A stretch of DNA of 64,000 nt from Gemmatimonadales bacterium (GCA_036002655.1 DASYTD010000149.1:1452-65451), one strand, 5' to 3'. Shown: positions 27,360-43,719, counted from the first letter of the stretch. The notes: generated from the sequence alone by a model not told the origin. Numbers and translations are program-made.

Positions 27360-28223
27360 CTATTCTCGCGGCGGCTCCTCGCCCTTAGTGACCAGCTCGA
27401 GCATCTCCTGACACTTCTTGCCCCAGGGATTGAACTTGTTCGCCTTGAAGCCGTCTTCCCAGGTGGCCTTGGCTTTCGCCTGATCGCCGGCGAACCAGTG
27501 CGCGCGTCCCAGCTCGTAGTAGGCCTCGATCAGATTGGGACCGAGCTTCAACGTCTTCTGGAAGAACGTCTCCGCGTCTTCGTACATCTCGCGCTGGAGA
27601 TAGACGAGCCCGAGATAGAAATGCGCGTACAGCGTCGCCTTTTTGTCGTTGTCGAGTCGAATCGCCTTCGACAGATGCTCGATGGCCTCGCCGAAGATCC
27701 GCTTCTTCAGGCAGATGTAGCCGACGTTGATCCGCGCGAGTGAATTCGCGGGCTCTTTCATCAAGACTTTTTGGAATGTGCCGAGCGCGTCGTCGTAGTC
27801 CTCGTGCAGCATCTGCGCCCACCCGAGCAGCGACTCCGCCTGCGTCTCGCCGGGCGAGAGCTGGAGCGCCTTGGTGAGCGCTTGGATCGCACCGGCATGA
27901 TCGCCGAGCGAGATGAGGCTCCACCCTTTTTCGATGAAGGTGGACGCGCCGATGTGGTCGGCATGCATGGCGGGCCGCTGTCCCGTGAATTCGGGAGCCG
28001 CGGCCTGCTTCGTGTCGGCGGCGAGCTGCTTGTAGCGGTCGACGAGCTGGCGGATGTCGTCCTTGAGTTGCGTCATCTCGCCCAGCATGCCGTCCACCTT
28101 CTTGAAATACGCGATGATCTCGCGCTTCGCGGCCTCGCGCTCGGCGTTCCCCGGCGCGCCCTCGAGCTGACGCGCGATGGTGTCGTATTCTCGGCGCAGC
28201 GCCGCGACCGGCGATTCCGTCAT
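27360..28223 (-). CDS. TPR-repeat protein (last gene of the che/mgl block)
   Basis: 287 aa. N-terminal coiled-coil-like segment, then TPR repeats (GDHAGAIQALTKALQLSP, YDDALGTFQKVLMKEP, FGEAIEHLSKAIRLD, YEDAETFFQKTLKLGP). The start overlaps the cheW stop by 4 nt. Confidence 0.8.
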   Translation of the reverse strand: MTESPVAALRREYDTIARQLEGAPGNAEREAAKREIIAYFKKVDGMLGEMTQLKDDIRQLVDRYKQLAADTKQAAAPEFTGQRPAMHADHIGASTFIEKGWSLISLGDHAGAIQALTKALQLSPGETQAESLLGWAQMLHEDYDDALGTFQKVLMKEPANSLARINVGYICLKKRIFGEAIEHLSKAIRLDNDKKATLYAHFYLGLVYLQREMYEDAETFFQKTLKLGPNLIEAYYELGRAHWFAGDQAKAKATWEDGFKANKFNPWGKKCQEMLELVTKGEEPPRE

Positions 28224-28699
28224 GTCACTCCTTGCAGGGCCATTTTTTCCTTTGAGTTCAGCAGTTTGTTGGTATTCAAAACGATGATGGTCCGGCCGTT
28301 CTGCACGATGAGACCGGCGATGTATTCGGCCGCCAATCCTTTCACGATACCGGGCGGCGGCGTCACGGCCTCGGCCGCCACCTGCAGCACCTCGGTCACG
28401 GCGTCCACGATCATGCCGATTTTCCCACCCTCGAACTCGAGGATGACGGTGCGCGTGTCCTCGCGCAGCGGTGCCGGCGTGCCGAGACGCTTCCGCAGGT
28501 CCACGAGTGGGACGACGCCGCCCTGATACTGGAGCACGCCCTCGAGAAAGTCGGGCGCCTTCGGCAGCGGCGCGGGCGCTTCATACCGCAGGATGCGCTC
28601 GACTTGAAAGATATTGAACGCGAAATCCTGGCCGCCCACCTTGAACGTGACCAGTTGGACGTCATCACCGGCCTCCCCCGCCCCCCCGGTGGTCGTCAT
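28220..28699 (-). CDS. cheW: chemotaxis coupling protein CheW (copy 1)
   Basis: Start taken at M27 of ORF 28220..28777; it overlaps the upstream stop (ATGA). QLVTFKVGGQDFAFNIFQVERILRYE...VLQYQGGVVPLVDLRKRLG is a typical CheW fold sequence. Confidence 0.88.
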   Translation of the reverse strand: MTTTGGAGEAGDDVQLVTFKVGGQDFAFNIFQVERILRYEAPAPLPKAPDFLEGVLQYQGGVVPLVDLRKRLGTPAPLREDTRTVILEFEGGKIGMIVDAVTEVLQVAAEAVTPPPGIVKGLAAEYIAGLIVQNGRTIIVLNTNKLLNSKEKMALQGVT

Positions 28700-29124
28700 G
28701 CGATACGATCTCCCAGCGCATCCAAGTCGAGAATCGGCACGAGCCCGCTTTCCTGCTCCGCGACGCCGACGGCCCACGGCAGCGTCTGCCCACGCGGCAC
28801 GGGAAGCGGCTGCTCGCGCACGACGGCATCTACGTCGTCTACTTCGAACGCAACTTGCCGGCCCCCCCCGCCCCCGGTGGCGCCGAGCTCGACGAGGACC
28901 ACCGTACGCACCGCACTTGGCGCAGCGGGCGCCTCCGTCCCTGTGAGAAACGCTCCTAAATGGATCAACGGCACCAGGCGTCCGCGCAGCGGCGTCAGGC
29001 CGCGAACTGCAGGGAGTTTACGTGGAACGCTCAGCACCTCAGTCGCGTCCCCGACTTCGAGCACGCGGCCGACCGGCAGACCGTACACCTTTCCCTGGGC
29101 GCGGACCAGCAGGTAGCCTTTCAT
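28696..29124 (-). CDS. cheW: CheW-like protein (copy 2, divergent)
   Basis: Start taken at M95 of ORF 28696..29406 ([24 protein letters not shown]...[15 protein letters not shown]); it overlaps the cheB stop (ATGA). Confidence 0.8.
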
Positions 29125-30248
29125 CGTAACGCCCTGCGACTCAGTTCGGCGGCCACGCGGTCGGCGATCTGGCCGAGCGGCAGCACGACATCCGCCCCGC
29201 CCGCCTGCACCGCCGCCAACGGCATTCCTGGAATGACCGACGTCTCGCGATCCTGCGCGACGCCGGTGCCACCCACGTCGTGGATCGCGCGCAAGCCCTC
29301 GGCGCCGTCGCGGCCCATCCCCGTGAGGACGACGCCTACGCCGCGCGCGCCGTAGACCTCGGCGATCGAGCGGAACAGCGGATCGGCCGCCGGGCGGACG
29401 CCCCAAATGGGCGGAGACTGATCGAGCGCGATGACGGGACCGTCGGGAGCGGAACGCACCCGCATATGATAATCGCCGGGGGCCACGTACGCCGTATCGG
29501 CGACGATCGGCACGCCGTCGTCGGCCTCGACGACGCGCAGCCGGGGGGGGCTCATCGAGTCGAGCCGCTCTGCAAGACTGCGGGTGAATTTCGGCGGCAT
29601 GTGTTGCACGATCAGCACCGCCGCGCCGCGCCCCGTGGGCAGGCGCGGCACGAGATCGGCGAGCGCGCGCGGCCCGCCGGTGGACGCCGCGACGCCGACC
29701 GCCAGCACGGCACGGCCGCGCGGCCGGAGCTCCGGCGGGTGCACGACGGGCGCCGGCGGCCGCGCCAGCACGTTGACGTGCGACAGGTCCGCCGCCAGCG
29801 CGCGACGCACCGCGGCGATGAGCTGCGGCGCAAGCGCTTCGAGCGCCGCGCGGGGATGACCGAAAACATCCGCCGGCGGTTTGGCGACGATCTCGACGGC
29901 GCCGAGCTCAAGGGCGCGGATCGCGGTAGCCGTGCCGGGGCCCACGTACGCGCTGACCACGACGATGGGCAGCGGCGACTCCGACATGATGTAGCCGATG
30001 GCGCCCAAGCCATCGAGCCGCGGCATCTCGAGATCGAGCGTGACGACGTCCGGTCGGTACTGATGCACTTTGCGGATGGCGTCCAGCCCGTCGCGAGCGG
30101 TCGCGACGACGCGGAACTCGCCGTTGTCCGCTTCTCCGCCGCCCAGGACGTCCACCAGCACGCGCCGCATGAGTGCGCTATCGTCGGCGACGACGACCGT
30201 CGGCCGCCCGGAAGACACGGGCTCAGATGACATGGGTATCGGCCCCAA
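29121..30248 (-). CDS. cheB: chemotaxis response regulator protein-glutamate methylesterase CheB
   Basis: REC domain ([21 protein letters not shown]) plus methylesterase catalytic motifs AASTGGP, VQHMP and GMGRDG. The start is 30248 or ATG 30233; both overlap the cheD 3' end. Confidence 0.92.
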
Positions 30249-30714
30249 CCGAGCGGATTTCCACGCGACCGTCCTTCACATGAAAGCGCACGCTGCGCCC
30301 GCGCTCACCCCCGACCGATTCCCGGACGATTGGGATTGCGGCCGCCCGAAGGGCGCTGCGACACGCCAGGACATTGCGCTCGCCCATTTGGATCGTGCCC
30401 GGCGTGACGAGCTGGCTGAACATGCTGGCACCGCCGGCCAGCTTCGCGACGAGCCGACGCGGGTCCGCGCCCAGGCCCTTGAGACGCTCGATCAGCAGGG
30501 GAACGGCGGTGTCGGGGAACTTGGCTCGGTTCGTGATATCGCGCGCCAGACTGGTGGACGGCAGGAGCACGTGCGCCATCGCGCCGGCCTTGGCTTCCGC
30601 ATCGTGCAGCATGAGCGCGACGCAGGACCCGAGTCCCAGCGTGACCAGTACGCCATCCCCGCGCTCGGCCGCCCAATCCGCCACCTTGACGATGACTTCC
30701 GTCACCGTCCTCAC
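30223..30714 (-). CDS. cheD: chemoreceptor glutamine deamidase CheD
   Basis: 163 aa. [13 protein letters not shown] (catalytic Cys), AHVLLP and GERNV motifs. The GTG start overlaps the cheR stop (GTGA). Confidence 0.9.
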
Positions 30715-31541
30715 GCCCTGACCCCCTCGCCGCGTTGCGGAGAGGGGGGACGGAGGGACCCATCGTCAGGCTTGACGTAGATCCGCTCGCGCGGATCCAC
30801 GAGCGTAAGGCGCTCGCGCGCGGGGCCGAACAACGTCTCGACCTTGCCGAGTAGCAGCACGCCGCCCGGTGCGAGCGCGTTCGCGAACACTTGAAACAGC
30901 CGCTCCTGCGCCTGGCGCTCGAAATAGATGACCACGTTGCGGCAGACGATGAGGTCGTAGGGAGGACGGGGCGGCGGCTCTCGCGTCAAATCGTGCGCGC
31001 GGATCTGCACCAGCTCGCGCACCAGGGGGGTCGGCTGCCCGTCCACGATGTAGTGGCGCTTGAGATTCGCCGGCATCTCGGTGAAGGCGCTCTCCGGATA
31101 CTTCGCCTGCCGCGTGCGCTCGAGGCTCAGTCGATCGATGTCCGTCGCGTCGATGAAACCCTGCGCGTGAGTTTCCGCGAGCAGCACCGCGATTGTGTAT
31201 GGCTCTTCACCGGAGGCGCAGCCGGCGGACCAGACGCGCAGGCTCGAGCGTGCCTGTGCCAACGCGTCGAGATAGGGCCGCAACGCGTTCCAGGTCTCGG
31301 CGTTGCGAAAGAACTTGGTGACGTTGATCGTGAGCGCGTCGAGCAGCTCCTGATACTCGCGCGCATCCCGATCGAGCAGCTTGCCGTAATCTTCGTAGGA
31401 ATGCACGCCGCGGGCCCGCATCCGGACCGCGATGCGGCGCTTCAGGCATTTGTCCTTGTACGATCCGCAGCTGATTCCCCGCTCGCGCGAAACCTTCTCC
31501 GTGAGCGCCCGAAAGCCGCGCTCGTCCTGCGCGGAGCTCAC
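30711..31541 (-). CDS. cheR: chemotaxis protein methyltransferase CheR
   Basis: Start taken at V64 of ORF 30711..31730. This GTG forms GTGA with the upstream stop and gives 276 aa. KCLKRRIAVRMR, TKFFRN, LRVWSAGCASGEEPYTIA (SAM site) and CRNVVIYF motifs. Confidence 0.9.
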   Translation of the reverse strand: MSSAQDERGFRALTEKVSRERGISCGSYKDKCLKRRIAVRMRARGVHSYEDYGKLLDRDAREYQELLDALTINVTKFFRNAETWNALRPYLDALAQARSSLRVWSAGCASGEEPYTIAVLLAETHAQGFIDATDIDRLSLERTRQAKYPESAFTEMPANLKRHYIVDGQPTPLVRELVQIRAHDLTREPPPRPPYDLIVCRNVVIYFERQAQERLFQVFANALAPGGVLLLGKVETLFGPARERLTLVDPRERIYVKPDDGSLRPPSPQRGEGVRA

Positions 31542-33154
31542 GACAGGGTGCTCAAGGTTTCCAAATTGGCTTTCACGAGTTCGTGCTTCGGGTTCAGCTC
31601 GAGGGCGCGGCGCCACAAGGCGCTCGCCTGGTCCCGGTCGTTTCGCTTGTAGGCGATGTTGCCGAGCTTGAAGTAGACGTCGTCGCCCAGCTCGGGAGAC
31701 AGCTCGATGGCGCGCTGATACAGCACCCACGCCTCGTCGTAGCGCGAGCCGCGGTAGGCGAGATCGCCGAGGTTCTTGGAGAGCTGCGGCAGGGACGGCT
31801 CGTCGTGCAGCGCGGCACGCGCGAGCTCTTCGGCTTTGAGCAGCTCGCCGGCGAGCTCGTGCAGCACCGCGAGATTGTTGCGGAGCACGCCATTTTGCGG
31901 ATGGGCTTCGACCGCCTGGGCGGCGACCTGCTCCGCAATTTCAAAGTCTCCCGCTGCAGCGGCGGCGAGCGCGCGCGCCCAGAACCAGATCGGCGGCACA
32001 CTCTCGGCAAAGAGCTCCTTGGCCCGGTCGAGCCGGCCCGCGGCGCTGACGTGGTCCCCCTGTTTCAGCGCGACCACGCCCCACCCCACGTAGACGCGCG
32101 GGTCGGTGCGCGCGCGCGTCGCCGCCTCGGCGTACGCCGCTTCCGCATCTTCCAGGCGGCCGAGCTGCTCGAATGCCAGTCCCAGGTTGTGCAACACCGC
32201 GGGCCGCGAGCCACCCTTTTCGGCGGCGAGCCGCAACGCTTCCATCGCTTCGCGCCAGCGCGCCTGCTTCAGCGCCACGAGCCCGATGAAGAAGTGCGCG
32301 TTGGCGTCGGTCGCGCGCAGCTCCGCCACGCGGCGGAATTCGCGCGCCGCTTCGTCCAGCATGCCGGTCTTGTAGAAGGCGATGCCCAAGTTGCGGTGCT
32401 CTTCCACGCGGGCATCCGTCATTTTCATGTCTTCGGCGCTGGCGGTGCGGCCGGCACGGTGGAGGAACCCGGCGGTGACGAGTCCGTACAGCGCCTTCCC
32501 CACCTCGAACTCACCCATCCCGGAGTCTTCGATGACCTGATTGACGTCACGCGAGCCATCGAGCAGCGGCAGCAGGCGCTCCTGCACTTCCGTCAGCTTC
32601 GCGTCGCTGATCGCAAGCCGGTCGCGGTCCACGAGGAAAATCAGATCGAAGGAGGGGATCTTCTTCTCGATGAGGCCCCACTCGTCCACGCGGCGCGCAC
32701 CCTCGAGCAGCAGCGACTCGGGATTGATGGACACGAGGAAGTCCTGCTGCTCGGGCCGGACGTCGGCCTCGAAGTTGAACGTCCCCTGCGTCCACGTGAA
32801 CAGGTAGTAAACCGACTCTTCGATCTGCATGCGCATGTAGCGCTCGAGCTCTTGCTGCGAGATCACGCTCTGGCTGACGAGGATCTCACCCAGCTTCTTG
32901 TCGCGCTCTTTGGCCTGGCGGTGAATCGCGGCGTCCAGCTGGTCCTGCGTGATCTTTTCGTGCTTGACGAGGATGTCGCCGAGGCGGTCGCGGCGATTCA
33001 CGATCGACGCGTACGCGATACGGCCTTTATCGAAGTAGATGTAGCCGAAGTTGGAACGGTCGGCGATCGACAGACAGCCGGTCTTCTGCCCCAACGCGAG
33101 CAGCTGCAGCACGTCGGGGAGCGAGGCTTCCTTGAGCGAGCCTTTGATCGCCAT
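31538..33154 (-). CDS. PATAN/DUF4388 domain - MshEN-like tandem motif - TPR protein (paralogue A)
   Basis: 538 aa. N-terminus [31 protein letters not shown]...GYIYFDKGRIAYA (DUF4388 signature). Then RLGDILVKHEKITQDQLDAAIHRQ-AKERDK-KLGEILVSQSVISQQELERYMRMQ. The C-terminal half is TPR repeats. Confidence 0.8.
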   Translation of the reverse strand: MAIKGSLKEASLPDVLQLLALGQKTGCLSIADRSNFGYIYFDKGRIAYASIVNRRDRLGDILVKHEKITQDQLDAAIHRQAKERDKKLGEILVSQSVISQQELERYMRMQIEESVYYLFTWTQGTFNFEADVRPEQQDFLVSINPESLLLEGARRVDEWGLIEKKIPSFDLIFLVDRDRLAISDAKLTEVQERLLPLLDGSRDVNQVIEDSGMGEFEVGKALYGLVTAGFLHRAGRTASAEDMKMTDARVEEHRNLGIAFYKTGMLDEAAREFRRVAELRATDANAHFFIGLVALKQARWREAMEALRLAAEKGGSRPAVLHNLGLAFEQLGRLEDAEAAYAEAATRARTDPRVYVGWGVVALKQGDHVSAAGRLDRAKELFAESVPPIWFWARALAAAAAGDFEIAEQVAAQAVEAHPQNGVLRNNLAVLHELAGELLKAEELARAALHDEPSLPQLSKNLGDLAYRGSRYDEAWVLYQRAIELSPELGDDVYFKLGNIAYKRNDRDQASALWRRALELNPKHELVKANLETLSTLS

Positions 33155-35091
33155 CAGCGAAGATCCTCGATGACACGGTCAGCAGCCGCGGGCCAATCCC
33201 ACACCATTTTCTCGCGGCTGCGCACACCTCCGGCGCTCGAGACCACGATCCCGCTGGTGCGCAAACCCGCCGTGCGACGCGGCGGCGGAGCGCCCTCGAG
33301 CACGTCGCGGGCGAGACCCGCCGTCACGGGTGCATCCTGCGCCGCGGCCGCCTCGATCACCCGCTGCACGAGCCCCGTCAAGCTGCGCACCGAGTCAACG
33401 GGGCGGTCCACGAGATAATCGAGCAGCGCCTCTTCCACCGGCACACGCTGGTTCTTGAGGAGCCGCGCCAGCGCGGCACGACGTAGCTCCTTGTCGGGGT
33501 CGCCGATTTCCGCGACGAGCCCACCCTCGAGCCGCGAGACGATGCGCTCCTCCAGGCCTTGGAGCGTGTTGGGATGGGCGGGCGCGGTGAAGACCAGCTG
33601 CCGGTCGGCGTCGAGGAACTGGTTGAAGAGATTGAAGAGCTCCTCCTGCGTCCGTTCCTTGCCGGCGAGCAGCTGGATGTCGTCGAGCAGCAGCGCCGTC
33701 GCGCGCCGGTAGCGCGCGCGCCACCAGTCCACCCGGTTGCCGTCAATGGCGGCGATCAGCTCGTCCACGAACTGCTGCGTGGACAGGCACGCCACGATGG
33801 CGTTTTTCTTCTTGGCCAGCTCGAGACCGATGGCGTTCAGGAGATGCGTTTTCCCGCGGCCACTCTTTCCGACGATCACGAGCGGGTTGTATTTCTTCCC
33901 GGGTTTGGCGATGGCGTCACGCGCGGCACTGAGCGCAACCTCGTTGGACGGACCCGCGATGTAGGTGCCGAGGGGGAACGCGCCGGACGGGGCCGGCGGT
34001 GGTGCCGCGCCGTCGCGTACTTTCGCGGCGGCCGCTTCCGCCTCCTCCATGTGGTCGGGATCGCGGAACACTTTCTCGCCCGCCGCCTGCGGATCGAGCA
34101 CCGCGACTTCCGCTTCGAGCGTCTTCAGCCGTTCGACGTCCTGCACGTACGCGGCGATCGCGTCGTCCACGGCCGCCGGCGTTTCCTGATCGAGCAGCTT
34201 CTCGAGCCGGCCGGTGCGGTACCCCTCGCCCTCCCACCGCAACACCGCCTCAGCCACACGCGCGCGCCACGCCTCGACGGCTTTGCCGACGGTGACCGTG
34301 ACGTCACTCAGGAACTGCGAGAACTCATCGCCCGCAGGCTTGGCCGCCGGCTCCGCCTTGGCCTCCCCGCTCCCTGCTACTCCAAGCACCTGCCGCGCGG
34401 CCTCCGCGTTGATGGGCGTGTCATTGACCGCCTGGAACGCGATCAGCCGGTTGAGCGCGCCCATCAGCTCGCGCACGTTCGGATACTCGACCTTCGCAAC
34501 CGTCTCGAGCACGCCGGGCTGGAACGACGTCCCGCGCTCTTCCGCCTTGCGGCGCAGAATCGCGACACGGGTTTCGTAATCGGGAATGCCCATATCGACA
34601 ACCAACCCGCCCGAAAAGCGCGAGATCAGCCGCTCATCGAGGTCCGCGATTTCCGCCGGGGGCCGGTCGCTCGCGAGCACGATCTGATGGCCGGCCTGCT
34701 GTAGTGCTTCGGTGAGGCGGAGCAGCTCGGTCTGCATCTCTTTGCGATTGGTCAGGAATTGCACGTCGTCCACCAGCAGCACATCCACATTCTGGAAGCG
34801 CCGCCGGAATGCGTCGCCCTGTCCGGCCGCGATCGCGGCATGGAAGGCTTCGACGTACTCGTCCAGCGTCAGGTATTCGATGTTGATCTGCGGGGCGAGC
34901 GCCTTGGCGGCGTGCCCGATGGCCATCAGCAGGTGGGTCTTCCCCAGCCCAGAGCCACTATAAATGAAGAGGGGGTTGTAGGCCGAGCCCGGATTCTCGG
35001 CGACCGTGCGTCCCGCCGTGACGGCCAGCCGGTTCGCGGCACCCACCACGAACGTCTCGAACATGAAGCGGGGATTGAGCGTGCTGGTCAT
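33154..35091 (-). CDS. tandem DnaA-domain-III (AAA+) protein lacking DnaA domains I and IV
   Basis: 645 aa. Module 1: [81 protein letters not shown]. Module 2: [56 protein letters not shown]. The ATG overlaps the mglA stop (ATGA). The stop overlaps the start of the next gene by 1 nt. Confidence 0.85.
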
Positions 35092-35690
35092 GCCACGGGG
35101 CTCCCCGCCGCGAGCTTCTTGAGGACTAACTCCGAGATTCCCTTCAGCGTCTCGAAGACGCCCTTGCCGTGCAGCGCGTCCGCCGCGAAGCTGGGCACGC
35201 TGCGGAAGTTCAGGGCGTCGTCCAGCTCCGCCTGCGTGAGAATCAGCTCGGGTGGCAGGTCCTGCTTGTTGTACTGCATCACGAGGGGCATCGTCCGGAC
35301 GTCCACGCCGTGCTCCAGCAGATTGCTCTGCAGGTTCTGGAGGCTCTCGATGTTCTCATCCAGCTGGCGCGCCTGGCTGTCGCCAACGAACACGACCCCG
35401 TCGGCACCCTGGAGCACGAGTCGCCGGGTCGCGTTGTAGTAGACCTGGCCCGGCACCGTGTAGAGCTGAAAGCGCGTCGAGAAGCCGGAAATCTGGCCGA
35501 GATCGATAGGCAGGAAATCGAAGAACAGGGTGCGGTCGGTCTGCGTAGCCAGCGAAACCATCCGCCCCCGCCGCGTCTCCGGCACCCGGCCGTACACGTA
35601 ATGGAGATTGGTCGTCTTTCCGGACCGGCCGGGTCCGTAGTAGACGATTTTGCACGTAATCTCGCGGCTCGTGAAGTTGACCAGGGACAC
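35088..35690 (-). CDS. mglA: Ras-like small GTPase MglA
   Basis: 200 aa, collinear with Myxococcus MglA as I remember it. [21 protein letters not shown] (P-loop), [11 protein letters not shown] (switch 1 with the intrinsic Arg), [10 protein letters not shown] (the MglA-specific TxxGQ in place of DxxGQ) and YNKQD. Confidence 0.93.
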
Positions 35691-35692
35691 GG

Positions 35693-36169
35693 CTATCTCC
35701 CAAACAGCGTGTTGAGGCTGTCCGTCAGCTCGCGCTCGAAGTCCGCGGCCAGCACCTGCTTTGGGACTGCGCCCTTGGGACTCGCCGACTTCAAGTCCGC
35801 CGCAAGTTGCTCATAGAATAACTGCACCAAGCCAAGCGATGAAACATCGAGATCGTAGACGGCCAGCACCGCCACCGTGCCGCGCTCCGTGGCGAAGGTC
35901 GCCAGGAAGAAGCCGTTCTTGGGACCTTGATGACTGAGGGCGGCGAACGGCGGCTGCCGCAGCTGGCGCGCCAGCTCGCCCGTGGAGGCGACGATCGCGG
36001 CGGCCAACGCTGCCGCCGACATCACGTCCACCGCCCGTGAGAATCCGGACTGCGCCAGCACCTGCCCGGACGGCGTCAGCACGAGCACCAGACGCACCGA
36101 TGCTTCCCGCACGAAGTCGGTGAGCGGCTGGAGCGTCCAGCTCTCGACGGCGCGGGTCTGGGGACTCAT
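35693..36169 (-). CDS. mglB: Roadblock/LC7 protein MglB (GAP partner of MglA)
   Basis: Start taken at M199 of ORF 35693..36763; it overlaps the upstream stop (ATGA) and gives 158 aa. Roadblock core [18 protein letters not shown]...[12 protein letters not shown] plus a C-terminal tail ending DSLNTLFGR. It lies immediately upstream of mglA, as in the mglBA operon. Confidence 0.8.
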
Positions 36170-36513
36170 ACGACGCTCTCCGCCGCGCGCAGCAGCTCGA
36201 GACGCACCAGACCGATGTTCACGTTGGGCTCCGCCACCGCGACGACCAGGATTCCGCCGGCCGAGTTCCCTCCCGGCACGACGAGCAGCGCCCCCTGCTC
36301 CGCCTGGAGATGCCAGAACACGCTCGTGCCGGTGCCGGCCGCTTCCATCGCGCGGCGCAAGCGGCCCGCGAGGCTCGCCGCCAGCGCGGCCACTGCCCCA
36401 CCCTTGATCCCTTCCATGAGCTGCTCGGCGACTACGATCCCGTCGTCCGCCGAGACGAGCATCGCCCCGCGCACGCCGCGCACGCGCGTGATCAGATCGA
36501 GCGCGGTGCTCAT
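36166..36513 (-). CDS. Roadblock/LC7 domain protein (stand-alone, 115 aa)
   Basis: Start taken at M7 (MSTALDLITRVRGVRGAMLVSADDGIVVAEQL...NIGLVRLELLRAAESV); it overlaps the upstream stop (ATGA). Typical Robl_LC7 pattern. Confidence 0.8.
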   Translation of the reverse strand: MSTALDLITRVRGVRGAMLVSADDGIVVAEQLMEGIKGGAVAALAASLAGRLRRAMEAAGTGTSVFWHLQAEQGALLVVPGGNSAGGILVVAVAEPNVNIGLVRLELLRAAESVV

Positions 36514-37358
36514 GTTTGTTTCTCCAACCACCGGCGCGCCATGGCGGTCGCGCGTTGCGCGAGAATCGCGAGGCGACCCAGCGGCATGCCGCGCTCCCGC
36601 ACGACGAGCAGCAAGGCCTCAGGCGTCGGATGGCCAAGGTGCACGTTGCCGTGCTGCCCTTCGGCCGAGAGCCCGTTCCACGCGCCGAGCCCGAGCAGCT
36701 TCGCGGTCCGCGCCGCCTCCTGCGACACACCGGCGAGATACGCGGCGACGGCGTCCGTGACATCAGTACCAGACTTATCCCTCAAGGCACCACCGAGGAC
36801 ACGACCAGCGCCGTCGATGAGCAGCAGGCCTTCGTTTGCACCCTCGAGTCCTGCGAAAACGCGAGCTTCGTCGAGCACACCACCCGAAACGGCGGCGGTA
36901 GAAGAGGCGGCGGTCGCTGACGGCTCCGGGGCGGAACTCGGTGTGGGCGACGGCGGTCCCACGCCGCTGCGCATCATCGCGATCGCCTGATCGATGGTGG
37001 GATCATCCGGCTCGACCTTGCGCGCGGCCTCGAGATGGGACTCGGCTTGCGCCAGGTCGCCGACTTTGAAATAGAGGAAGGCGAGTCCCTTCAACGCACC
37101 GGTGTGGTTCGGCGCGATCCGCACCGCCATGTCCCACTCGTCGAAGGCGCGCTCGTAATCATGCTTGTCGGTGAGCACGCGCGCGTACAGGTCGTGAGCG
37201 TCCGCCAGGTGGGGATGGCGCTCGAGGCCGTTCATCGCGACGCGCAGCGCCGCCTCGAGCTGGCCCTTGCGCCGCAAGGCTTCGCCCAGCCGCAGGAACA
37301 CGAGGCTCTGCGGATCCTGTGCGAGCTGGGCGGAGAGTGCGCGAATCTCGTCAGCCAT
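36510..37358 (-). CDS. TPR - Roadblock/LC7 fusion protein
   Basis: 282 aa. The N-terminal 130 aa or so are TPR-like (LGEALRRKGQLEAALRVAMNGLERHP, YERAFDEWDMAVRIAP, LAQAESHLEAARKVEP). A Ser/Pro/Ala linker follows. The C-terminal segment GLLLIDGAGRVLGGAL...ALLLVVRERGMPLGRLAILAQRA is Roadblock-like. Confidence 0.75.
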   Translation of the reverse strand: MADEIRALSAQLAQDPQSLVFLRLGEALRRKGQLEAALRVAMNGLERHPHLADAHDLYARVLTDKHDYERAFDEWDMAVRIAPNHTGALKGLAFLYFKVGDLAQAESHLEAARKVEPDDPTIDQAIAMMRSGVGPPSPTPSSAPEPSATAASSTAAVSGGVLDEARVFAGLEGANEGLLLIDGAGRVLGGALRDKSGTDVTDAVAAYLAGVSQEAARTAKLLGLGAWNGLSAEGQHGNVHLGHPTPEALLLVVRERGMPLGRLAILAQRATAMARRWLEKQT

Positions 37359-38487
37359 GGGCGAACACTCGGGCTGCTTGCCGGGCGCGCTCGACTTCGG
37401 ACCGCTGCGCTTCCTCGTCGGGGCCGCGGGCGAGCCGCTCCCATTGATCCCAGCTTGCGACCGCTTCGGCGAACCGGCCCATGGACACCAGCGCGAATCC
37501 CAGCTGGCGATGCGCGGCCGCGAGCTGCGGGTCGAGCCGCAGCGCGCGGCGCAGCTCCTCGGCAGCCGCGGAGCCGTGTCCCTGAGCCAGGTGAATCCGG
37601 CCGAGCAGCATGTGGATCGTCGGATCGTGCGGCTGCATGCCGCCCGCCTGCTCCGCCGCCGCGCGCGCCGCGTCGAGATCCTTCGCGAGCAACGCCCGCT
37701 CCGCCTTCGCGACGAGCTCCGGCAGATCCGACACGGCGCTGGGCCGCCCGCGCTTTGCCGTGCCGGGGTCCACCAGCACGATCACACCCGCGCTCTCGAG
37801 ACCGAACAGCGTCTTGGCGACGTCGAAGTCCGAGCGGCCCAGCTCCGTCGCCAGTCCCCGGACGGAACGCTCGCCATCAATGAGCGCCAGCACCTCCCAC
37901 TCGGGTGGCAGCAGATCGAGCTCGCCGCCGCCCCCTTCGGGTGGCGGCGCGAGCGACGGCACGACGCCGACATGGGGAATGCGGTTCTCGATGCGCGACC
38001 ATTCGTCGATGCGGCGCGCTCCTTCCATCAGCAACGCTTCGACCGGAATCCGCACCGTGACCTCGGTCGGCACTTTCGTGTCGGGCTGCTCGTTGAACGA
38101 GAAGTAGCCTTCGTTCCAGCTCATCACTTCGAAGACGACTTCCTCGATCTGGAACCGCACTTGCCGCTCGACCTCGCGTTGGGTGATCACGCCGAGCGCG
38201 ACCAGGATTTCGCCGAGCCGCCGCTTGTCGCCCTGGCGCTGCTGCATGTCGCGGGCGCGCTCGAGGTCGGCCTCGGTGATCTTGCCCGTGCGCAGCAGCA
38301 GCGCGCCCAGCGGGTGCGGGTTGCTGCGGATTTCCGCGGAGACCACCACCCCGTTGTCGAAATAGATCGTCCCCTCGTTGTGCCGCAGCTCCGAGGTGAC
38401 CTTCAACGCGCCCGTCTTCCGGCTCAGATCGAGGAGCTGGAAGACGTCGTGGATGCCGAGCTCGCGGAGCGGTCCTTCGATCGCCAT
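37351..38487 (-). CDS. PATAN/DUF4388 domain - MshEN-like tandem motif - TPR protein (paralogue B)
   Basis: 378 aa. MAIEGPLRELGIHDVFQLLDLSRKTGALKV...GTIYFDNGVVVSA (DUF4388). Then PLGALLLRTGKITEADLERARDMQ and RLGEILVALGVITQREVERQVRFQ. C-terminal TPR repeats. Confidence 0.8.
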   Translation of the reverse strand: MAIEGPLRELGIHDVFQLLDLSRKTGALKVTSELRHNEGTIYFDNGVVVSAEIRSNPHPLGALLLRTGKITEADLERARDMQQRQGDKRRLGEILVALGVITQREVERQVRFQIEEVVFEVMSWNEGYFSFNEQPDTKVPTEVTVRIPVEALLMEGARRIDEWSRIENRIPHVGVVPSLAPPPEGGGGELDLLPPEWEVLALIDGERSVRGLATELGRSDFDVAKTLFGLESAGVIVLVDPGTAKRGRPSAVSDLPELVAKAERALLAKDLDAARAAAEQAGGMQPHDPTIHMLLGRIHLAQGHGSAAAEELRRALRLDPQLAAAHRQLGFALVSMGRFAEAVASWDQWERLARGPDEEAQRSEVERARQAARVFAHG

Positions 38488-38491
38488 GTCG

Positions 38492-41191
38492 CTACGCCGC
38501 GTCCGAGGTGGAGAAGATGTGCTGCAAATCCACGGCGGTCCGCGCGTGCATGCGCGACCGCTGCGCGAACGGTCCGCCCGGATCGATGCGGGTCACCCGC
38601 TCCCACGCGTCCACCGCTTCGCCATAGCGCTGCAGCCGCGCCAGCGTCGCGCCGAGGTAGAATAACGCGCCGGTGTGCTCGGGATCGAACTTGAGCGCGC
38701 GCCGGAACGCCTCGAGCGCTTCGACGTTGCGCTTGTCGTCGAGCAGCGCTCGGCCGAGCAACAGCAACGCATCCATGTCGTACGGATCCTGCTCCAGCAT
38801 TTCGGCGAGCCGCACCACGGCGGCGCGAACGCTGCCCGAGCGCCGCAACAAATCGGCGAGCGCGAGCGCCGCCTCATGGAACGTCGGCAACGCCTCGAGC
38901 GCCTCTTCGTACGCGCGCTGCGCCTGCGGCCAATCTTCGTCCTGCTCGTGCAGCCGGCCCAGCTCCAGCCACACCTGCACGAATCCCCGATCGAGATCGA
39001 GGGCGGAGCGGTACGCGGCGCTCGCGCCCTGCCGATCGCCGACCTTGAGCGCGATGTCGCCCTGCAGCTTGTGCAGATCGGCACGCGCCGGCGCACGGGT
39101 CTGTGCCTGCCGCAGCGCCGTGAGCGCGCCGGCCGCGTCACCCGTCGCGGCGCGTGCCTTTGCGGCGGCCACCAGCACCTCGACGTCTTCCGGCGCGTTG
39201 GTGGCGAGCGCTTCGGCGAGCGGCAGCGCTTCGGCTCCCCGATGCACGGCCAGGAGGCTCTTCACCTCGCCCAGCGCCGCGGCGGAGTTCGCGGCGTCGA
39301 GCGTGCGGGCTTCGCGGTAGCGCTCGAGCGCTTCGCCGTGCAGGCCGCGGCGCGCGTAGATGTCGCCGAGCAGCGTGGCCGCCTGGCCGCGGTCGGCACC
39401 GCGCTGGACGGCCCGCATCGCTTCGGCGACCGCGAGGTCCATCATCCCCTTGCTCACGTAGTCGCGTGCCAAGGCAAGCGGGTCGTCCACTTTCTTCGCG
39501 AGCCCGGCAGGTGCGGGCTGCAGCGCCGCCGCGGGCGGCTCGAGCTCCTGGAAAATGTTGTCGAGCAGCCGTTGGTCGAACGCGAACTCGCCTCCGAGGT
39601 TCTCGGCCGTGACGTCGGCCGAGATCTCGGGCACGATGCCGATGGCCACGGTCTCGTATTGCAGGTCGATCGCCAGGGCGAATTTCTGCGAGACGTAGTA
39701 GGGATCCAGCTCGAGGGCGCGTTTGGTGGCCCGCAGCGCGCCGTCGTAATCGCCGAGATTGGACAGCGTGAAGCTCAGGTTGTAGTGCGCGCCGGCATTC
39801 TGCGGATCGGCCTCGACCGCTCGCACGAACGCGTTGCGGGCATCGGGAAACCGTTTCAGCTCGACCAGCACCAGCCCCACGCCGTTCCACGCCGGCGCCG
39901 ACGCCGGCTGTTCCGCCAGCACCTGGCGATAGGCTTCGAGTGCGAGCTGGAAGCGGCGCAGATGCGTGAGCAGCAACGCGAGATTGAGCCGGGCGCCCAG
40001 GAATCCGGGCGAGAGCTGCAGCGCTTTCCGGAACCCCTCGATGGCGTCCTCGGTGTCGCTCTGATGCGCGAGCACCACGCCCACGTTATTCCAGGCGAGC
40101 GCGTAGCGCGGATCGACTTCGGTCGCCTGACGATAGGACGTGAGCGCTTCGGCCGTGCGCCCCGCCTGATGCAACACCACGCCGCGCTCGTTCCACAGCT
40201 TGGGCGAATCAGGCAGGTCATGGATCAACGACTCGTACAGCTCGAGCGCGTCGGGGAAGTCGCGCTTGAGGAGATAGACCTCCGCCATCGCCTGGCGCAC
40301 GAGCCGCCGGTCCTCCCCGCGCTCGATCGCGAGGCGATACTCGCGCAGCGCCTCCGTGTAGTAGCCCTTCTGCCGGAAGGCGAGGCCGAGGTTGTAGTGG
40401 GCGAGCTCGCTGCCCTCGGCGACTTCCGGCGCGGGTTGCTCGCGCAGCCGGTGCTCGGCCGACTGCCGCTCGGCGCGGTAGCGCTCCAGCGACAGATTCG
40501 TCTGCGCGCGCGCGAGCGGCGGGTTGAGCTGAATCGCCCGTTTCGATGCCGCGCGCGCATCCTGATGCCGCCCCATGTCGCCGAGCACGAACGCCATCAG
40601 GTAATGCGCGTTCGCGTTGTCGGGATTGAGCATCACCGCGCGCTCCAGGGCGGTCAGCGCCGGCTCGTTCAAGCCGCGATTGTAGTAGACCTCCCCCAGA
40701 TAGAAGTGCACGACGGAGGAATCGGGCTCCTCCTCGGCGGCCCGCAGGAACCACTCGGTCGCGACTTCCAACCGGCCGCGGGATTTCTCGGCGAGTCCGA
40801 GCTGGATGATCGCGGCCACGTCCTTGGGCTTGTGGGCGAGCAGCTCCTCGAACTCGGCGACCGCCTCCTCGAAGGCGCCGAGGATCGCGTACGTGCGGCC
40901 CAGCTCCCAGCGCGCGTCGCGCTCGTCGGGCGCCTGGCGCAGGCGCTCCTGCAGCTCGCCGACGCGGCGGTCGTAATAGCCGGTGTTGTGGTAGGAAATC
41001 TCGAGGTTGCGCTGCGCGACCTGCATCCGCGGGTCGAGCTCCAGCGCGCGCGTGAACTGCTCGATGGCCTCGGGCACGAGGCCTTTTTGATAATAGAGAA
41101 CGCCGAGGTTGTTGTGCGCCCCCGCGTCCGACGGATCGATCCGGCGGGCAAAGGACCTCAACACCGTGAGGTCGCGTTCTGATACGATCAA
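38492..41191 (-). CDS. large TPR-repeat protein (about 899 aa)
   Basis: ORF 38492..41302 is TPR repeats essentially end to end (more than 20 repeats by eye). The annotated ORF start overlaps cheC by 115 nt. I prefer TTG 41191-41189, which forms TTGA with the cheC stop. GTG 41164 is an alternative start. Confidence 0.8.
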   Translation of the reverse strand: MIVSERDLTVLRSFARRIDPSDAGAHNNLGVLYYQKGLVPEAIEQFTRALELDPRMQVAQRNLEISYHNTGYYDRRVGELQERLRQAPDERDARWELGRTYAILGAFEEAVAEFEELLAHKPKDVAAIIQLGLAEKSRGRLEVATEWFLRAAEEEPDSSVVHFYLGEVYYNRGLNEPALTALERAVMLNPDNANAHYLMAFVLGDMGRHQDARAASKRAIQLNPPLARAQTNLSLERYRAERQSAEHRLREQPAPEVAEGSELAHYNLGLAFRQKGYYTEALREYRLAIERGEDRRLVRQAMAEVYLLKRDFPDALELYESLIHDLPDSPKLWNERGVVLHQAGRTAEALTSYRQATEVDPRYALAWNNVGVVLAHQSDTEDAIEGFRKALQLSPGFLGARLNLALLLTHLRRFQLALEAYRQVLAEQPASAPAWNGVGLVLVELKRFPDARNAFVRAVEADPQNAGAHYNLSFTLSNLGDYDGALRATKRALELDPYYVSQKFALAIDLQYETVAIGIVPEISADVTAENLGGEFAFDQRLLDNIFQELEPPAAALQPAPAGLAKKVDDPLALARDYVSKGMMDLAVAEAMRAVQRGADRGQAATLLGDIYARRGLHGEALERYREARTLDAANSAAALGEVKSLLAVHRGAEALPLAEALATNAPEDVEVLVAAAKARAATGDAAGALTALRQAQTRAPARADLHKLQGDIALKVGDRQGASAAYRSALDLDRGFVQVWLELGRLHEQDEDWPQAQRAYEEALEALPTFHEAALALADLLRRSGSVRAAVVRLAEMLEQDPYDMDALLLLGRALLDDKRNVEALEAFRRALKFDPEHTGALFYLGATLARLQRYGEAVDAWERVTRIDPGGPFAQRSRMHARTAVDLQHIFSTSDAA

Positions 41192-41805
41192 GTCAATCGA
41201 ATGGCGTCGAAGATCGCTTTGAGAGACGCCAGGTCGGGCAGGAGCAGGAAATGCCCGCGCAGCCCGTCTTGGGCATCGATGTTGAACTCCGTCTCGACGC
41301 AAAACACGAAGTCCCGGTCGTGCCCAAAGTTCAGATAGGTCGTTGTGAGCACGGCGGCGGAGAGATCCACTACCAGGCTAGGGACCGAGGGGAGCAGCAA
41401 CATCCCCATGAATTCGGACAGCGCGTTCATGTAAGCGCCCGAGAGGATGTTGCCGGCTTCCTTGAGGCAGGACTGCTCGATCGTCTCGAACACCTTGGTC
41501 GTGCCCAGGGGGCGCTTGAGCAGCATGTCGCACAGCTGCCGCCCGACGGGCTCGGGGAACAGCAGCAACGTGCGTCCCGTGAGGTCGCCGAGCATGTGCA
41601 TGAGGACGGCGGCGACGACCTCCTGTGGGTCGCCGATCAGTCCCGGCACCTCCTCGAGGCGCGCGATGTTGATCTCGGGTACCGAGATCATGATGCGCCG
41701 GTGCGTGAGCTGCGACAGCGCCGTGGCGGCGTGCCCCGCTCCGATGTTGGCGACCTCTTTCAGCGCGTCGAGCTGCAGCGCCTTCAGATCACGGACGTCT
41801 TCCAT
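41188..41805 (-). CDS. cheC: CheY-P phosphatase CheC
   Basis: Start taken at M12 (MEDVRDLKALQLDALKEVANIGAGHAATALSQL) with GGAGGAG upstream. A second pseudo-repeat follows (EQSCLKEAGNILSGAYMNALSEF). Both halves carry the E-x2-N active-site pattern. Confidence 0.85.
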   Translation of the reverse strand: MEDVRDLKALQLDALKEVANIGAGHAATALSQLTHRRIMISVPEINIARLEEVPGLIGDPQEVVAAVLMHMLGDLTGRTLLLFPEPVGRQLCDMLLKRPLGTTKVFETIEQSCLKEAGNILSGAYMNALSEFMGMLLLPSVPSLVVDLSAAVLTTTYLNFGHDRDFVFCVETEFNIDAQDGLRGHFLLLPDLASLKAIFDAIRLT

Positions 41806-41818
41806 CGTCGCTCCTCCC

Positions 41819-43717
41819 CTACACCAGGCCGGCGGCATCGAGAATCAGCGCCGGCACCCCATCGCCCATGATCGTGGCGCCGCTGAAGACCGGCAGCGTG
41901 CCTTCCGGTGCATCGAATCCCTTCACGACGATCTCCTGCTGACTGAGCATCCCGTCGACGACGATCCCGGCGCGCCGCTCGCCCAATTCCACAACAATCA
42001 CTGGGCGCCGCGGCGGCGGCGCGGGAGCACCGCCATTCGTTCCCAGGAGCTTCCGCAGATCCACGAGCGGCACCACCCGATCGCGCAGCACAATGGCGTC
42101 GCGGCCTTCCATCGTCGTGAGGGGCACCGTCCCGAACTCGACCGTCTCCGCGACGTAGGTCAGCGGCAGCGCGTAGCGCTCCTGGCCGACGGCGGCGATC
42201 AGCGCGCGCACGATCGCGAGCGTCACCGGCAGCCGCAGGATGAAGGCGGTGCCCTTCCCCGGCTCGGTGCGGATCTCGATCGATCCGCCGAGCGCGCGGA
42301 TGCGCGTCATGGCGACATCGATCCCGACTCCTCGGCCCGAGACGTTGGTCACCGCATCCGCCGTGGAGAATCCCGGCCGCGCGAGCACGCGCAGCAGCTG
42401 ATCGTCCGACAGTGCCTCGACGTGCGGGCCCACGATTCCTTCGCGCTTCGCCTGCTCCAGAATGCGCGTGCGATCGATGCCGCGGCCGTCGTCGCTGATG
42501 CTGATCGCGACGCTGGAGCGCTCGCGCACGGCCGAGAGAACGATCTCTCCCTCGGCATTCTTCTTGGCGCGTTTGCGCTCGGCGGGGGACTCGATGCCGT
42601 GGTCCACGGCGTTGCGCAGCAGGTGCACGAGCGGATCGCCCAACTCGTCGAGGATTTCGCGATCGAGCTCGATCTCCTTCCCTTCCACGCGAAACGCCAC
42701 CTGCTTGCCGACCTGCCGGGCAACGTCGCGCACCAGCCGGGGAAAGCGATCGAACACTTGCCAGACCGGCGTCATGCGCGCCTGGATGATTTCGTTCTGC
42801 AGATCAGCGGAGAGCCGCGAGATCTGAATCGCGACTTCGTCGATCTGCGGATCGTGTCCGACCCAGCGTGCCGCCAGCTCGTTCAAGCGGCCGCGCTCCG
42901 TGACGAGCTCGCCGATGAGATCCATGAGCGTATCGAGCCGGCGCAGATCCACCCGGATGTGCCGGCCGCGCCCCCCACCCGCGACGCTCTCGGCGGGCGT
43001 GACCTGGCTCTCGTCGCCCCCCCCCGCGACGGTGGCGCGTTCGACGTCTCCCACCGAGCGGATGGCGGCCTCGATGTCGGCCGGCGCAGCCGCGGTGTCG
43101 AGCTCGAAGGCGAAACGGCCATCGAAGTCATCGGACTCGAATGCGGCGGCCGCGGGCTGGAGGCGATGAACAGCGCCGAGCGTCTGCGCCTTGCGCACGA
43201 TCAGCATCGCGCGGCCGCCCTTGAGCGGGGCTTCGGGACGGATTACGACTTGGACGACGCGTCCGGAGCCGGACGGGGCGGCGAGTGAGGCGGCGGCGGG
43301 GGGCGGCGGTCGCTTGGGCACCGCCTGGGCTTTCGGTGCGTAATGCGCCGCTGCGCGATCGATGTCCGCGACAACGGTCAGATCCGCATCACGCTCCCGG
43401 CCGGCAACGGCGAGCGCAACCGCCTTCTCGAGTGCGTCAGTTGCGCGGAACAAGAGCTGCAGCGTCTCGTCAGTCGGATGTCGCGCGCCGCGCCGCAAGT
43501 GATCGAGCAGGTTTTCCATGCGGTGGGCGAGGTCCGCGACGCGGCCGTAACCCATCGTCGCCGCCATCCCCTTGATCGTATGCACCGCGCGGAAGATGCC
43601 GCCCACCGGCTCCGGCGAGGCGGGATGCCGCTCCCACTCGAGCAACAGCTGATTGCAGGCGCTCAAGTGCTCGCGGCTCTCGGCCAGGAACAGCTCGGCG
43701 TACTGCGACAGGTCCAT
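41819..43717 (-). CDS. cheA: chemotaxis histidine kinase CheA
   Basis: Start taken at M43 (MDLSQYAELFLAESREHL), 2 nt after the cheY stop. Hpt motif FRAVHTIKG, dimerisation RHIRVDLRRLDTLMDLIGELV, N-box HLLRNAVDHGIE, G-boxes DDGRGID and GRGVGID, and a C-terminal CheW-like domain. No C-terminal REC domain. Confidence 0.95.
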   Translation of the reverse strand: MDLSQYAELFLAESREHLSACNQLLLEWERHPASPEPVGGIFRAVHTIKGMAATMGYGRVADLAHRMENLLDHLRRGARHPTDETLQLLFRATDALEKAVALAVAGRERDADLTVVADIDRAAAHYAPKAQAVPKRPPPPAAASLAAPSGSGRVVQVVIRPEAPLKGGRAMLIVRKAQTLGAVHRLQPAAAAFESDDFDGRFAFELDTAAAPADIEAAIRSVGDVERATVAGGGDESQVTPAESVAGGGRGRHIRVDLRRLDTLMDLIGELVTERGRLNELAARWVGHDPQIDEVAIQISRLSADLQNEIIQARMTPVWQVFDRFPRLVRDVARQVGKQVAFRVEGKEIELDREILDELGDPLVHLLRNAVDHGIESPAERKRAKKNAEGEIVLSAVRERSSVAISISDDGRGIDRTRILEQAKREGIVGPHVEALSDDQLLRVLARPGFSTADAVTNVSGRGVGIDVAMTRIRALGGSIEIRTEPGKGTAFILRLPVTLAIVRALIAAVGQERYALPLTYVAETVEFGTVPLTTMEGRDAIVLRDRVVPLVDLRKLLGTNGGAPAPPPRRPVIVVELGERRAGIVVDGMLSQQEIVVKGFDAPEGTLPVFSGATIMGDGVPALILDAAGLV

Positions 43718-43719
43718 CG

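Follow-up and report, generated by a model that had tools for sequence, protein, structure and literature searches.

Our analysis of a 64,000-nt stretch of a Gemmatimonadales metagenome-assembled genome (MAG; 68% GC), referred to here as the window, concerns two paralogous genes that each encode a PATAN (DUF4388) domain followed by tetratricopeptide repeats (TPRs). The two genes enclose exactly five others, as an initial annotation of the window had claimed: a TPR-Roadblock fusion, a stand-alone Roadblock protein, MglB, the small GTPase MglA and a tandem DnaA-type AAA+ ATPase, all seven genes of the bracket lying on the minus strand. This is a known kind of association, PATAN with MglA and MglB, in a new and unusually complete operon form. 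As a pair, the paralogues go with the GTPase/Roadblock set, while the downstream copy goes with the ATPase and the chemotaxis kinase and adaptation genes are optional. The explanation that we favour, tentatively and at somewhat short of even confidence, is that the two genes encode ancient paralogous adaptor or scaffold proteins of an MglA/MglB polarity-switch operon found across Gemmatimonadota. The helical insert (alpha-clip) of each PATAN domain is, moreover, a predicted MshEN-type cyclic di-GMP (c-di-GMP) motif, intact in the downstream copy and degraded in the upstream one; this link of the PATAN insert to MshEN is new, and paralogue-specific c-di-GMP sensing is a new testable prediction.

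The paralogous pair and its conservation

The upstream (UP) copy, of 378 amino acids (aa), occupies 37351..38487 (-) and the downstream (DN) copy, of 538 aa, occupies 31538..33154 (-). Both open reading frames (ORFs) were found where they had been placed, together with the N-termini and the EEVVFEVMSWNEGYFSF and EESVYYLFTWTQGTFNF segments reported for them, and the G+C content at third codon positions is 0.87 in each, typical of real genes in the window. The assignment to PATAN/DUF4388 was upheld by a hidden Markov model check, in which PF14332 (gathering cut-off, 25 bits) scored 113.4 bits (E 8e-33) against the UP protein and 137.2 bits (E 4e-40) against the DN protein. Pfam also detected TPRs at both C-termini, confirming the proposed shared architecture of a PATAN domain and then TPRs, and found no match to Response_reg in either paralogue. 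Alignment revealed in both copies an alpha-helical insert, the alpha-clip, that splits the beta-rich PATAN core; a winged helix follows the core, and then about three TPRs in the UP protein and about eight in the DN protein. The suspected paralogy was borne out by pairwise BLASTP, which aligned 348 residues at 35% identity (E 7e-51), well above what chance would give. Measured against eight close genomes, the ratio of nonsynonymous to synonymous substitution rates (dN/dS) is 0.073 for the UP copy and 0.051 for the DN copy, in the same range as those of MglB (0.058) and the ATPase (0.079), and purifying selection acts on both copies.

Full-length AlphaFold2 (AF2) modelling of the 538-aa protein from 45 close homologues gave a predicted local distance difference test score (pLDDT) below 55 for the PATAN core and above 90 for the TPRs. 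Modelling of DN residues 1-245 from a more varied alignment reached a pLDDT of 88.7 and a predicted template modelling score of 0.77. In this model the beta-rich core is broken by four helices (residues 58-119), which sit between strands 45-51 and 125-130 with a local pLDDT of 86-93, and is followed by a winged-helix-like domain (aa 171-236; 32447..32644 (-)), recognized by its AF2 secondary structure, a Foldseek match to the winged helix 2yu3 and weak Pfam winged-helix matches. A search of the PDB with the whole protein returned TPR matches only. For the DN model of residues 1-245 as a whole (PATAN and winged-helix region, 32420-33154), the best Foldseek matches were to GATOR1 Nprl2/Nprl3 and were weak (probability 0.5-0.93, TM about 0.26). 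Nprl2 and Nprl3 are longin and winged-helix proteins that act on Rag GTPases. As a lead from these weak structural matches, the PATAN core may serve as a GTPase-binding platform. Profile comparison (hhalign) of the PATAN core with MglB/Roadblock alignments gave no signal, in a comparison without power since its positive control was weak too.

The conservation of the pair was followed in close and in deep relatives. The window ATPase has 100% identity with proteins of Gemmatimonadales MAGs. A scan of one genome per species yielded 80 close loci, nearly all from Gemmatimonadales/Gemmatimonadota, and the gene order is identical across all of them; among the best 120 matches listed in the homologue search, all were close orthologues. 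Relative to the window proteins, CheY has a median identity of 97%, MglA of 92%, the DN copy of 84.5% and the UP copy of 75%. Two loci, L039 and L051, come from MAGs labelled Myxococcales and Thermoleophilaceae, yet carry a typical Gemmatimonadales operon (ATPase 76-77% identical) and are probably mis-binned contigs. The deep set was obtained by searching 1.8 billion cluster representatives with the ATPase, which recovered about 50 full-length tandem relatives, down to 34% identity; the contigs of twelve deep relatives were examined and the window proteins were mapped onto them. Six of these loci (L081, L083, L084, L087, L088 and L091) hold MglA, MglB, two other Roadblock proteins and the ATPase (33-44% identical), and all six carry both PATAN-TPR genes, one of about 380 aa upstream and one of about 538 aa downstream, at the same chromosomal site, RluD to MraW, where the contig is long enough. 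Both copies are present in 61 of the 61 close loci with room on both sides of the ATPase and in six deep lineages, and none of the loci with an MglA block lacks either.

The chemosensory (che) genes follow a different pattern. CheA, CheW, CheR, CheB and CheD are absent in L084, which has CheY and CheC only, and in L081, and both PATAN copies are kept there; CheD is absent in L087, and L091 has an extra AAA ATPase. CheY accompanies the core in every deep lineage for which the contig extends that far. As a side observation, che content varies while the MglA core is fixed, and an extra AAA_16/AAA_22 ATPase stands beside CheW in two loci. Where the locus has no MglA/MglB, a single PATAN gene is found at most. 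L089 combines che genes, the large TPR protein, a short PATAN gene (248 aa, without TPRs) and the ATPase; L090 has only a Roadblock gene, the ATPase and a DN-type PATAN-TPR gene; L093 has RluD, the ATPase and the beginning of a DN-type PATAN gene; and in L094 the large TPR protein stands beside the ATPase without any PATAN gene. In a tree of the N-terminal 245 residues, UP and DN proteins, the window copies among them, form two clean clades, with the L089 protein outside both. Since these clades are clean and both copies occur in the deep loci, the duplication is old and predates these lineages. Likewise, because both copies are kept without CheA, CheW, CheR, CheB and CheD, and one copy is left without MglA and MglB, the pair belongs to the MglA/Roadblock/ATPase core and not to the Che kinase set. 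The fixed core consists of CheY, CheC, the large TPR protein, PATAN-TPR(up), TPR-Roadblock, Roadblock, MglB, MglA, the tandem ATPase, PATAN-TPR(down) and a further TPR protein.

The alpha-clip as a predicted c-di-GMP motif

The stretch between the fourth and fifth PATAN strands resembles, as two tandem repeats, the 24-residue MshEN motif RLGxxLLxxGLLxxxxLxxxLxxQ (PMC5013675). The alpha-clip of the DN copy (aa 57-110; 32825..32986 (-)) has a full MshEN_N-type pair, RLGDILVKHEKITQDQLDAAIHRQ-AKERDK-KLGEILVSQSVISQQELERYMRMQ, and that of the UP copy (aa 59-112; 38152..38313 (-)) has an MshEN-type pair with a deviant first half. NF053729, an NCBIfam model of 53 positions named 'cyclic di-GMP-binding domain-containing protein, MshE-related' (cut-off, 38 bits), scores 53.8 bits against the former and 43.3 bits against the latter. 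When a profile of the N-terminal region was compared with the PDB, it matched through the alpha-clip only, to Thermus thermophilus PilF (E 1.7e-12), Geobacter PilB and Vibrio cholerae MshE (5htl, E 2.8e-7); Pfam reports no T2SSE_N match for the alpha-clip. The modelled structure agrees with this assignment. By Foldseek, the four helices of the DN model superpose on c-di-GMP-bound MshE (5htl_B) at 1.3 Å over 56 columns with 34% identity (probability 1.0), and on c-di-GMP-bound PilF domains at 1.1-2.1 Å (8pfa, 1.1 Å over 54 columns).

The two paralogues differ at the residues that contact the ligand in MshEN domains, scored per half as R/K-h-G ... h ... h ... Q. All 12 contact positions, six per half, are kept at 97-100% among the DN copies (n=80). 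Among the UP copies (n=72) the second half is canonical, and the first half carries two fixed substitutions, corresponding to R9P and L29R: position 1 is Pro in 65/72 and position 21 is Arg in 70/72. The Leu-to-Arg type of change is listed among those found in the non-binding XpsE. The difference extends to the deep lineages, where NF053729 scores 49-58 bits against the DN copies and 0-40 bits, mostly below its cut-off, against the UP copies.

That the alpha-clip resembles secretion-ATPase N-termini was already noted in 2006, as relayed by a citing paper. In a literature search of incomplete coverage, we found no paper that attributes c-di-GMP binding to PATAN alpha-clips. The 2016 MshEN census counted one MshEN domain in Nostoc and three in Synechocystis; as each of the two has several PATAN proteins, PATAN alpha-clips seem not to have been counted there as MshEN. 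For Gemmatimonas the same census gives 8 GGDEF, 5 GGDEF+EAL, 2 EAL and 7 HD-GYP proteins, 2 MshEN and no PilZ. Elsewhere, PATAN has been found fused to other c-di-NMP modules, namely ComFB and the arrangement MshEN-HD-GYP-REC-DUF4388.

Possible roles of the pair

In the adaptor/scaffold explanation that we favour, MglA-GTP and MglB would mark opposite poles, as they do in Myxococcus, and phosphorylated CheY (CheY~P) would reset them. The PATAN-TPR proteins would dock on the switch, either on MglA or on its partners, via their TPR arrays, much as the MglA partners SgmX and Bd2492 might suggest, and the PATAN core would hand the state on to an output machine such as the pilus motor. In Myxococcus xanthus, MglA works through the TPR protein SgmX (PMC7519303), and in Bdellovibrio it works through the TPR protein Bd2492, which also contacts the c-di-GMP receptor CdgA (PMC3983030). 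The long DN copy, presumably coupled in translation to the AAA+ ATPase, would sense c-di-GMP through its intact insert and gate the output; the short UP copy, with its half-site degraded and co-varying with MglB, would act on the MglB/Roadblock side as a counterpart that responds weakly or not at all to c-di-GMP. Evolutionary rates across 41 genomes are consistent with distinct partners: the UP copy co-varies with MglB (r = 0.44) and the large TPR protein (0.31), with a value of 0.09 for the ATPase, and the DN copy co-varies with CheB (0.45), TPR-Roadblock (0.40) and the ATPase (0.36), with 0.07 for MglB. Between the UP and DN copies the value is r = -0.21. The divergence of the copies in c-di-GMP motif, in TPR number (about eight vs three) and in covariation partners fits a division of labour in general. 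The reading of the alpha-clips as working receptors goes further, and holds that they bind c-di-GMP, that the DN copy couples c-di-GMP to the MglA switch via the tandem ATPase and that the UP copy is the constitutive counterpart; taken as a whole, we regard it as possible but doubtful.

Several points weigh against the favoured explanation and its c-di-GMP component. Every functional step in it rests on analogy. The rate covariation is weak, exploratory evidence, because its permutation p-values ignore phylogeny. Among the ORFs scanned in the window there is no type IV pilus gene and no methyl-accepting chemotaxis protein (MCP). A PATAN gene stands beside the ATPase without MglA in L089, L090 and L093, and so the ATPase, and not MglA, may be the primary partner. 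Regarding the c-di-GMP motif, its turn positions are off-canonical in both copies (Glu/Lys for Gly and hydrophobic), the linker between the half-motifs has 6-7 residues instead of the canonical 5, the insert is embedded in a different domain, where its binding face may not be exposed, and there are MshEN domains that fail to bind c-di-GMP although their motifs look good.

In the strongest rival, which takes up the observation on the ATPase, the tandem ATPase is the main partner of the PATAN-TPR proteins, which would serve it as regulators, substrate adaptors or assembly factors, and the MglA, MglB and Roadblock set would have joined this older pairing only later. The adjacency of the ATPase and PATAN(down) is the most persistent feature of the loci, being found also in L090 and L093 at the same chromosomal site. 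In L089, where MglA is absent, the short PATAN gene overlaps the start of the ATPase gene by 8 nt; in the window, the DN start overlaps the ATPase stop (TGATG), which suggests translational coupling, and the DN copy co-varies with the ATPase at the value given above. However, the ATPase of L094 adjoins the large TPR protein without PATAN, no function is known for this ATPase family, on which we found no paper, and the UP copy occurs only with MglA, MglB and Roadblock, so that the pair as such tracks the GTPase set. On balance we consider this rival rather unlikely. The model of the initial annotation, in which the pair are adaptors carrying the Che signal to MglA, with one copy per pole or per nucleotide state, draws on the position of the genes inside a che operon, on the divergence of the copies, on the PATAN-REC fusions (PatA, PixG), which show that PATAN and CheY-like receivers cooperate, and on the retention of CheY with the core in deep lineages. 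As it was stated, adaptors between Che components and MglA, it is not supported, given that L084 and L081 keep the pair without CheA, CheW, CheR, CheB and CheD and that PATAN stands by the ATPase without MglA in L089, L090 and L093; the clearest difference between the copies, moreover, lies in a c-di-GMP motif and not in a feature related to GTP or GDP. With only CheY and CheC left in L084/L081, the tie is to the MglA/Roadblock/AAA+ core with CheY/CheC and not to the kinase and adaptation genes. We therefore hold the model as a whole to be unlikely, although CheY could be a direct partner of PATAN, since it is retained and PATAN-REC fusions exist elsewhere.

Two further proposals concern the cell cycle and transcription. 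The module could serve cell division or the cell cycle and not motility, with the PATAN-TPR proteins and the DnaA/Hda-like ATPase linking polarity to the divisome or to replication. The operon lies directly upstream of the dcw cluster, a position kept in deep lineages, DivIVA is encoded nearby, and the second ATPase half scores near the cut-off of the Hda model (182 vs 195 bits). Anabaena PatA has also reportedly been seen at division sites. The Synechocystis preprint touches on where PatA is localised without going further. A shared neighbourhood with housekeeping clusters can, however, be incidental, the characterised group-1 MglA proteins govern motility and polarity, and the ATPase lacks a recognisable DnaA domain IV, so that we judge a division role quite improbable. 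The other proposal is that the paralogues are DNA-binding transcription regulators, acting via the winged-helix-like domain that follows the PATAN core in both copies, as was once proposed for PatA. The 2006 PATAN paper is said to have predicted a helix-turn-helix domain. The Synechocystis preprint mentions this prediction. Yet the Synechocystis work argues against DNA binding by PatA-type regulators and shows membrane localisation and motor binding, both the operon context and the length of the TPR array speak for protein-protein interaction, and Pfam scans gave no match to a DNA-binding helix-turn-helix family above its curated cut-off. We regard this role as very unlikely, and as the least likely of those considered.

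Operon setting and comparison with known systems

The bracket lies within a block of 17 genes on a single strand, as annotated with Pfam and NCBIfam, in the order CheY, CheA, CheC and a large TPR protein, then the bracket, then CheR, CheD, CheB, two CheW and a 287-aa TPR protein. Junctions within the bracket are tight or overlapping, with ATGA and TGATG overlaps and one overlap of 8 nt. Next to the UP copy is the TPR protein with a C-terminal Roadblock fusion (282 aa; 36510..37358 (-)), identified by TPR matches, a weak Robl_LC7 match (E 0.007) and a weak match to an MglB model; its orthologues in L088 and L091 show a clear Robl_LC7 match. The stand-alone Roadblock/LC7 protein (121 aa; 36166..36531 (-), likely start 36513) matches PF03259 (E 7e-10) and the Roadblock protein of PDB entry 7f8m (E 6e-6), and the MglB homologue (157 aa; 35693..36166 (-)) follows, its ATG start lying on the stop of the previous gene in an ATGA overlap. 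Three Roadblock-fold proteins are thereby encoded in succession. The best PDB matches of the MglB homologue are M. xanthus MglB (6h5b, E 9e-9) and Thermus MglB, and NF052242 aligns with it end to end, but with a score under the equivalog cut-off of that model. Of a 356-aa ORF at 35693-36763, only the last 157 codons are MglB; the remainder was rejected as an artefact of high GC content that runs over the Roadblock gene.

MglA (200 aa; 35088..35690 (-)) is a group-1 small GTPase that matches M. xanthus MglA (5ymx) end to end with 248 bits (E 4e-73). It retains the P-loop GKTT, the intrinsic Arg and TVPGQ with the catalytic Gln, and the Roadblock-fold MglB is encoded directly upstream. The ATPase gene (645 aa; 33154..35091 (-)) starts on the MglA stop, in another ATGA overlap, and encodes two Bac_DnaA modules (PF00308, two stretches, E 4e-102), with Walker A/B, the box VII Arg and the sensor II Arg present in both halves. 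Pfam found no match in it to Bac_DnaA_C, the DNA-binding domain IV, and the Hda model scored 182.3 bits against the second half, under its cut-off of 194.8 bits. On these sequence features, the protein is best classed as a DnaA-type AAA+ protein that is neither DnaA nor Hda. Tandem ATPases of this kind make up a broad undescribed family, with about 50 full-length tandem representatives at 50% clustering, and genes for a large TPR protein, a PATAN protein or both recur beside them, even without MglA. In a literature of which our coverage was incomplete, no paper was found on the family or on MglA together with a DnaA-like ATPase.

Outside the bracket, the large TPR protein (about 900 aa; 38492..41302 (-), true start downstream of 41302) has Pfam TPR matches and is present in every related locus. 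A conserved core member, it also lies beside the ATPase in L094, where it is 30% identical over 839 aa. Further upstream, at 41188..44082 (-), CheY (43720-44082), CheA (41819-43717) and CheC (41188-41838) were identified with Pfam and NCBIfam. CheY is the most conserved gene of the operon, its median of 97% amino-acid identity being taken over 72 loci and its dN/dS being 0.018, and its identity in deep lineages is still 68-88%; from the sequences, this conservation fits a hub touching many partners. It is the only stand-alone single-domain receiver (REC) protein of the operon, a further, N-terminal REC being found in CheB. The window CheA aligns end to end with plain CheA models of NCBIfam, and its orthologues are without a REC domain in precomputed Pfam annotation. 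On the other side of the bracket, at 27360..31520 (-), CheR, CheD, CheB and two CheW, again assigned with Pfam and NCBIfam, are followed by a 287-aa coiled-coil/TPR protein (27360-28223) that closes the operon. By eye, this protein has an N-terminal stretch that looks coiled-coil, and then TPRs; its median identity is 89%, with 46-69% in deep lineages, and its gene directly follows the DN PATAN gene where the che adaptation genes are absent (L081, L084). No MCP and no dual-REC protein turned up in the set of ORFs scanned over the 64 kb of the window. As CheR, CheB and CheD are present without an MCP in the window, a receptor or another methylation substrate must be encoded elsewhere.

The operon is preceded by IleRS, DksA, LspA and RluD and followed by the dcw cluster, from MraW to FtsZ. 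Further out on the upstream side are DivIVA (50521-51099) and a DisA_N/CdaA c-di-AMP cyclase (53987-54787). The site between IleRS-DksA-LspA-RluD and dcw (MraW, FtsI, Mur, FtsZ; 23213-50524) is kept in L084, L087, L088 and L091, in which the ATPase is 34-44% identical. Horizontal transfer or a mobile origin of the operon was considered and is not supported, the composition being flat (about 0.64-0.71 GC) and the chromosomal position fixed.

The PatA-type PATAN-REC regulators of cyanobacterial chemosensory systems of the type IV pilus type (PatA, PixG, PixE, LsiR) have the same PATAN domain with an alpha-clip insert and are likewise encoded with che genes. In contrast to them, the CheY-like receiver is here a separate gene of the same operon, the polypeptide has a winged helix and TPRs in place of REC, and two diverged copies flank an MglA/MglB set. 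The PATAN domains of Synechocystis regulators bind PilB1 and PilC; this link to the pilus motor has been shown for the cyanobacterial proteins only. With MshEN_N of V. cholerae MshE, T. thermophilus PilF and PilB, the alpha-clips share the two 24-residue motifs and the four-helix bundle, but they are inserted inside PATAN rather than N-terminal in a secretion ATPase, and the UP copy has Pro and Arg at two contacts. With the Frz/MglA-MglB-MglC-RomR/SgmX system of M. xanthus, the locus has in common a group-1 MglA, MglB, further Roadblock proteins, a Che pathway and large TPR proteins as likely GTPase partners. The Myxococcus parts are unlinked, however, whereas here they form one operon, which adds two PATAN-TPR proteins and the tandem ATPase and has no RomR, FrzZ, CheA-REC (FrzE) or MCP (FrzCD) nearby; judged by its gene content, the locus does not encode a Frz-type pathway. 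The MglA-Bd2492-RomR-CdgA hub of Bdellovibrio, where MglA, a TPR protein and a c-di-GMP receptor meet at one pole, follows the logic proposed here. There, MglB has been lost and the receptor, a degenerate GGDEF, is a protein distinct from the TPR protein, whereas here one polypeptide holds the TPRs and the putative receptor, and MglB is present.

The bracket is not new as a bare fact, since it was tabulated in 2015 for Gemmatimonas. That PATAN genes occur close to mglB and mglA had been recorded both in 2006 and in 2015, and the entry for Gemmatimonas aurantiaca GAU_1409 in the 2015 survey reads 'PATAN>MglA>-PATAN>' (Wuichet & Søgaard-Andersen 2015, Table S2). Compared by this table entry, the neighbourhood belongs to the same phylum and has the same two-PATAN bracket of MglA, in which one gene follows MglA. 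It is given there in the table only; the 2015 text as consulted does not discuss the paralogy, the c-di-GMP motif, the ATPase or the Roadblock and che genes.

These findings bear on the route by which chemosensory signals arrive at the MglA/MglB switch and on the role of PATAN domains beyond cyanobacteria. The operon brings a whole candidate circuit (CheY, CheC, MglA, MglB, Roadblock proteins, TPR scaffolds, the PATAN pair and an AAA+ protein) together in one conserved unit, whereas its Myxococcus parts are scattered, and G. aurantiaca offers a culturable relative for genetics. The tandem DnaA-type ATPase family, so far without a described function, gains a testable one from its operon context. 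A motif specific to one paralogue would help to explain how c-di-GMP is received in a phylum with many cyclases and no PilZ. If the predicted binding is true, the DN PATAN-TPR protein would link c-di-GMP to MglA polarity in the PilZ-less Gemmatimonadota via a new AAA+ machine, and an overlooked class of c-di-GMP effectors would take in PATAN proteins at large, among them PatA, PixG and PixE of cyanobacteria and the dozen or more of Myxococcus.

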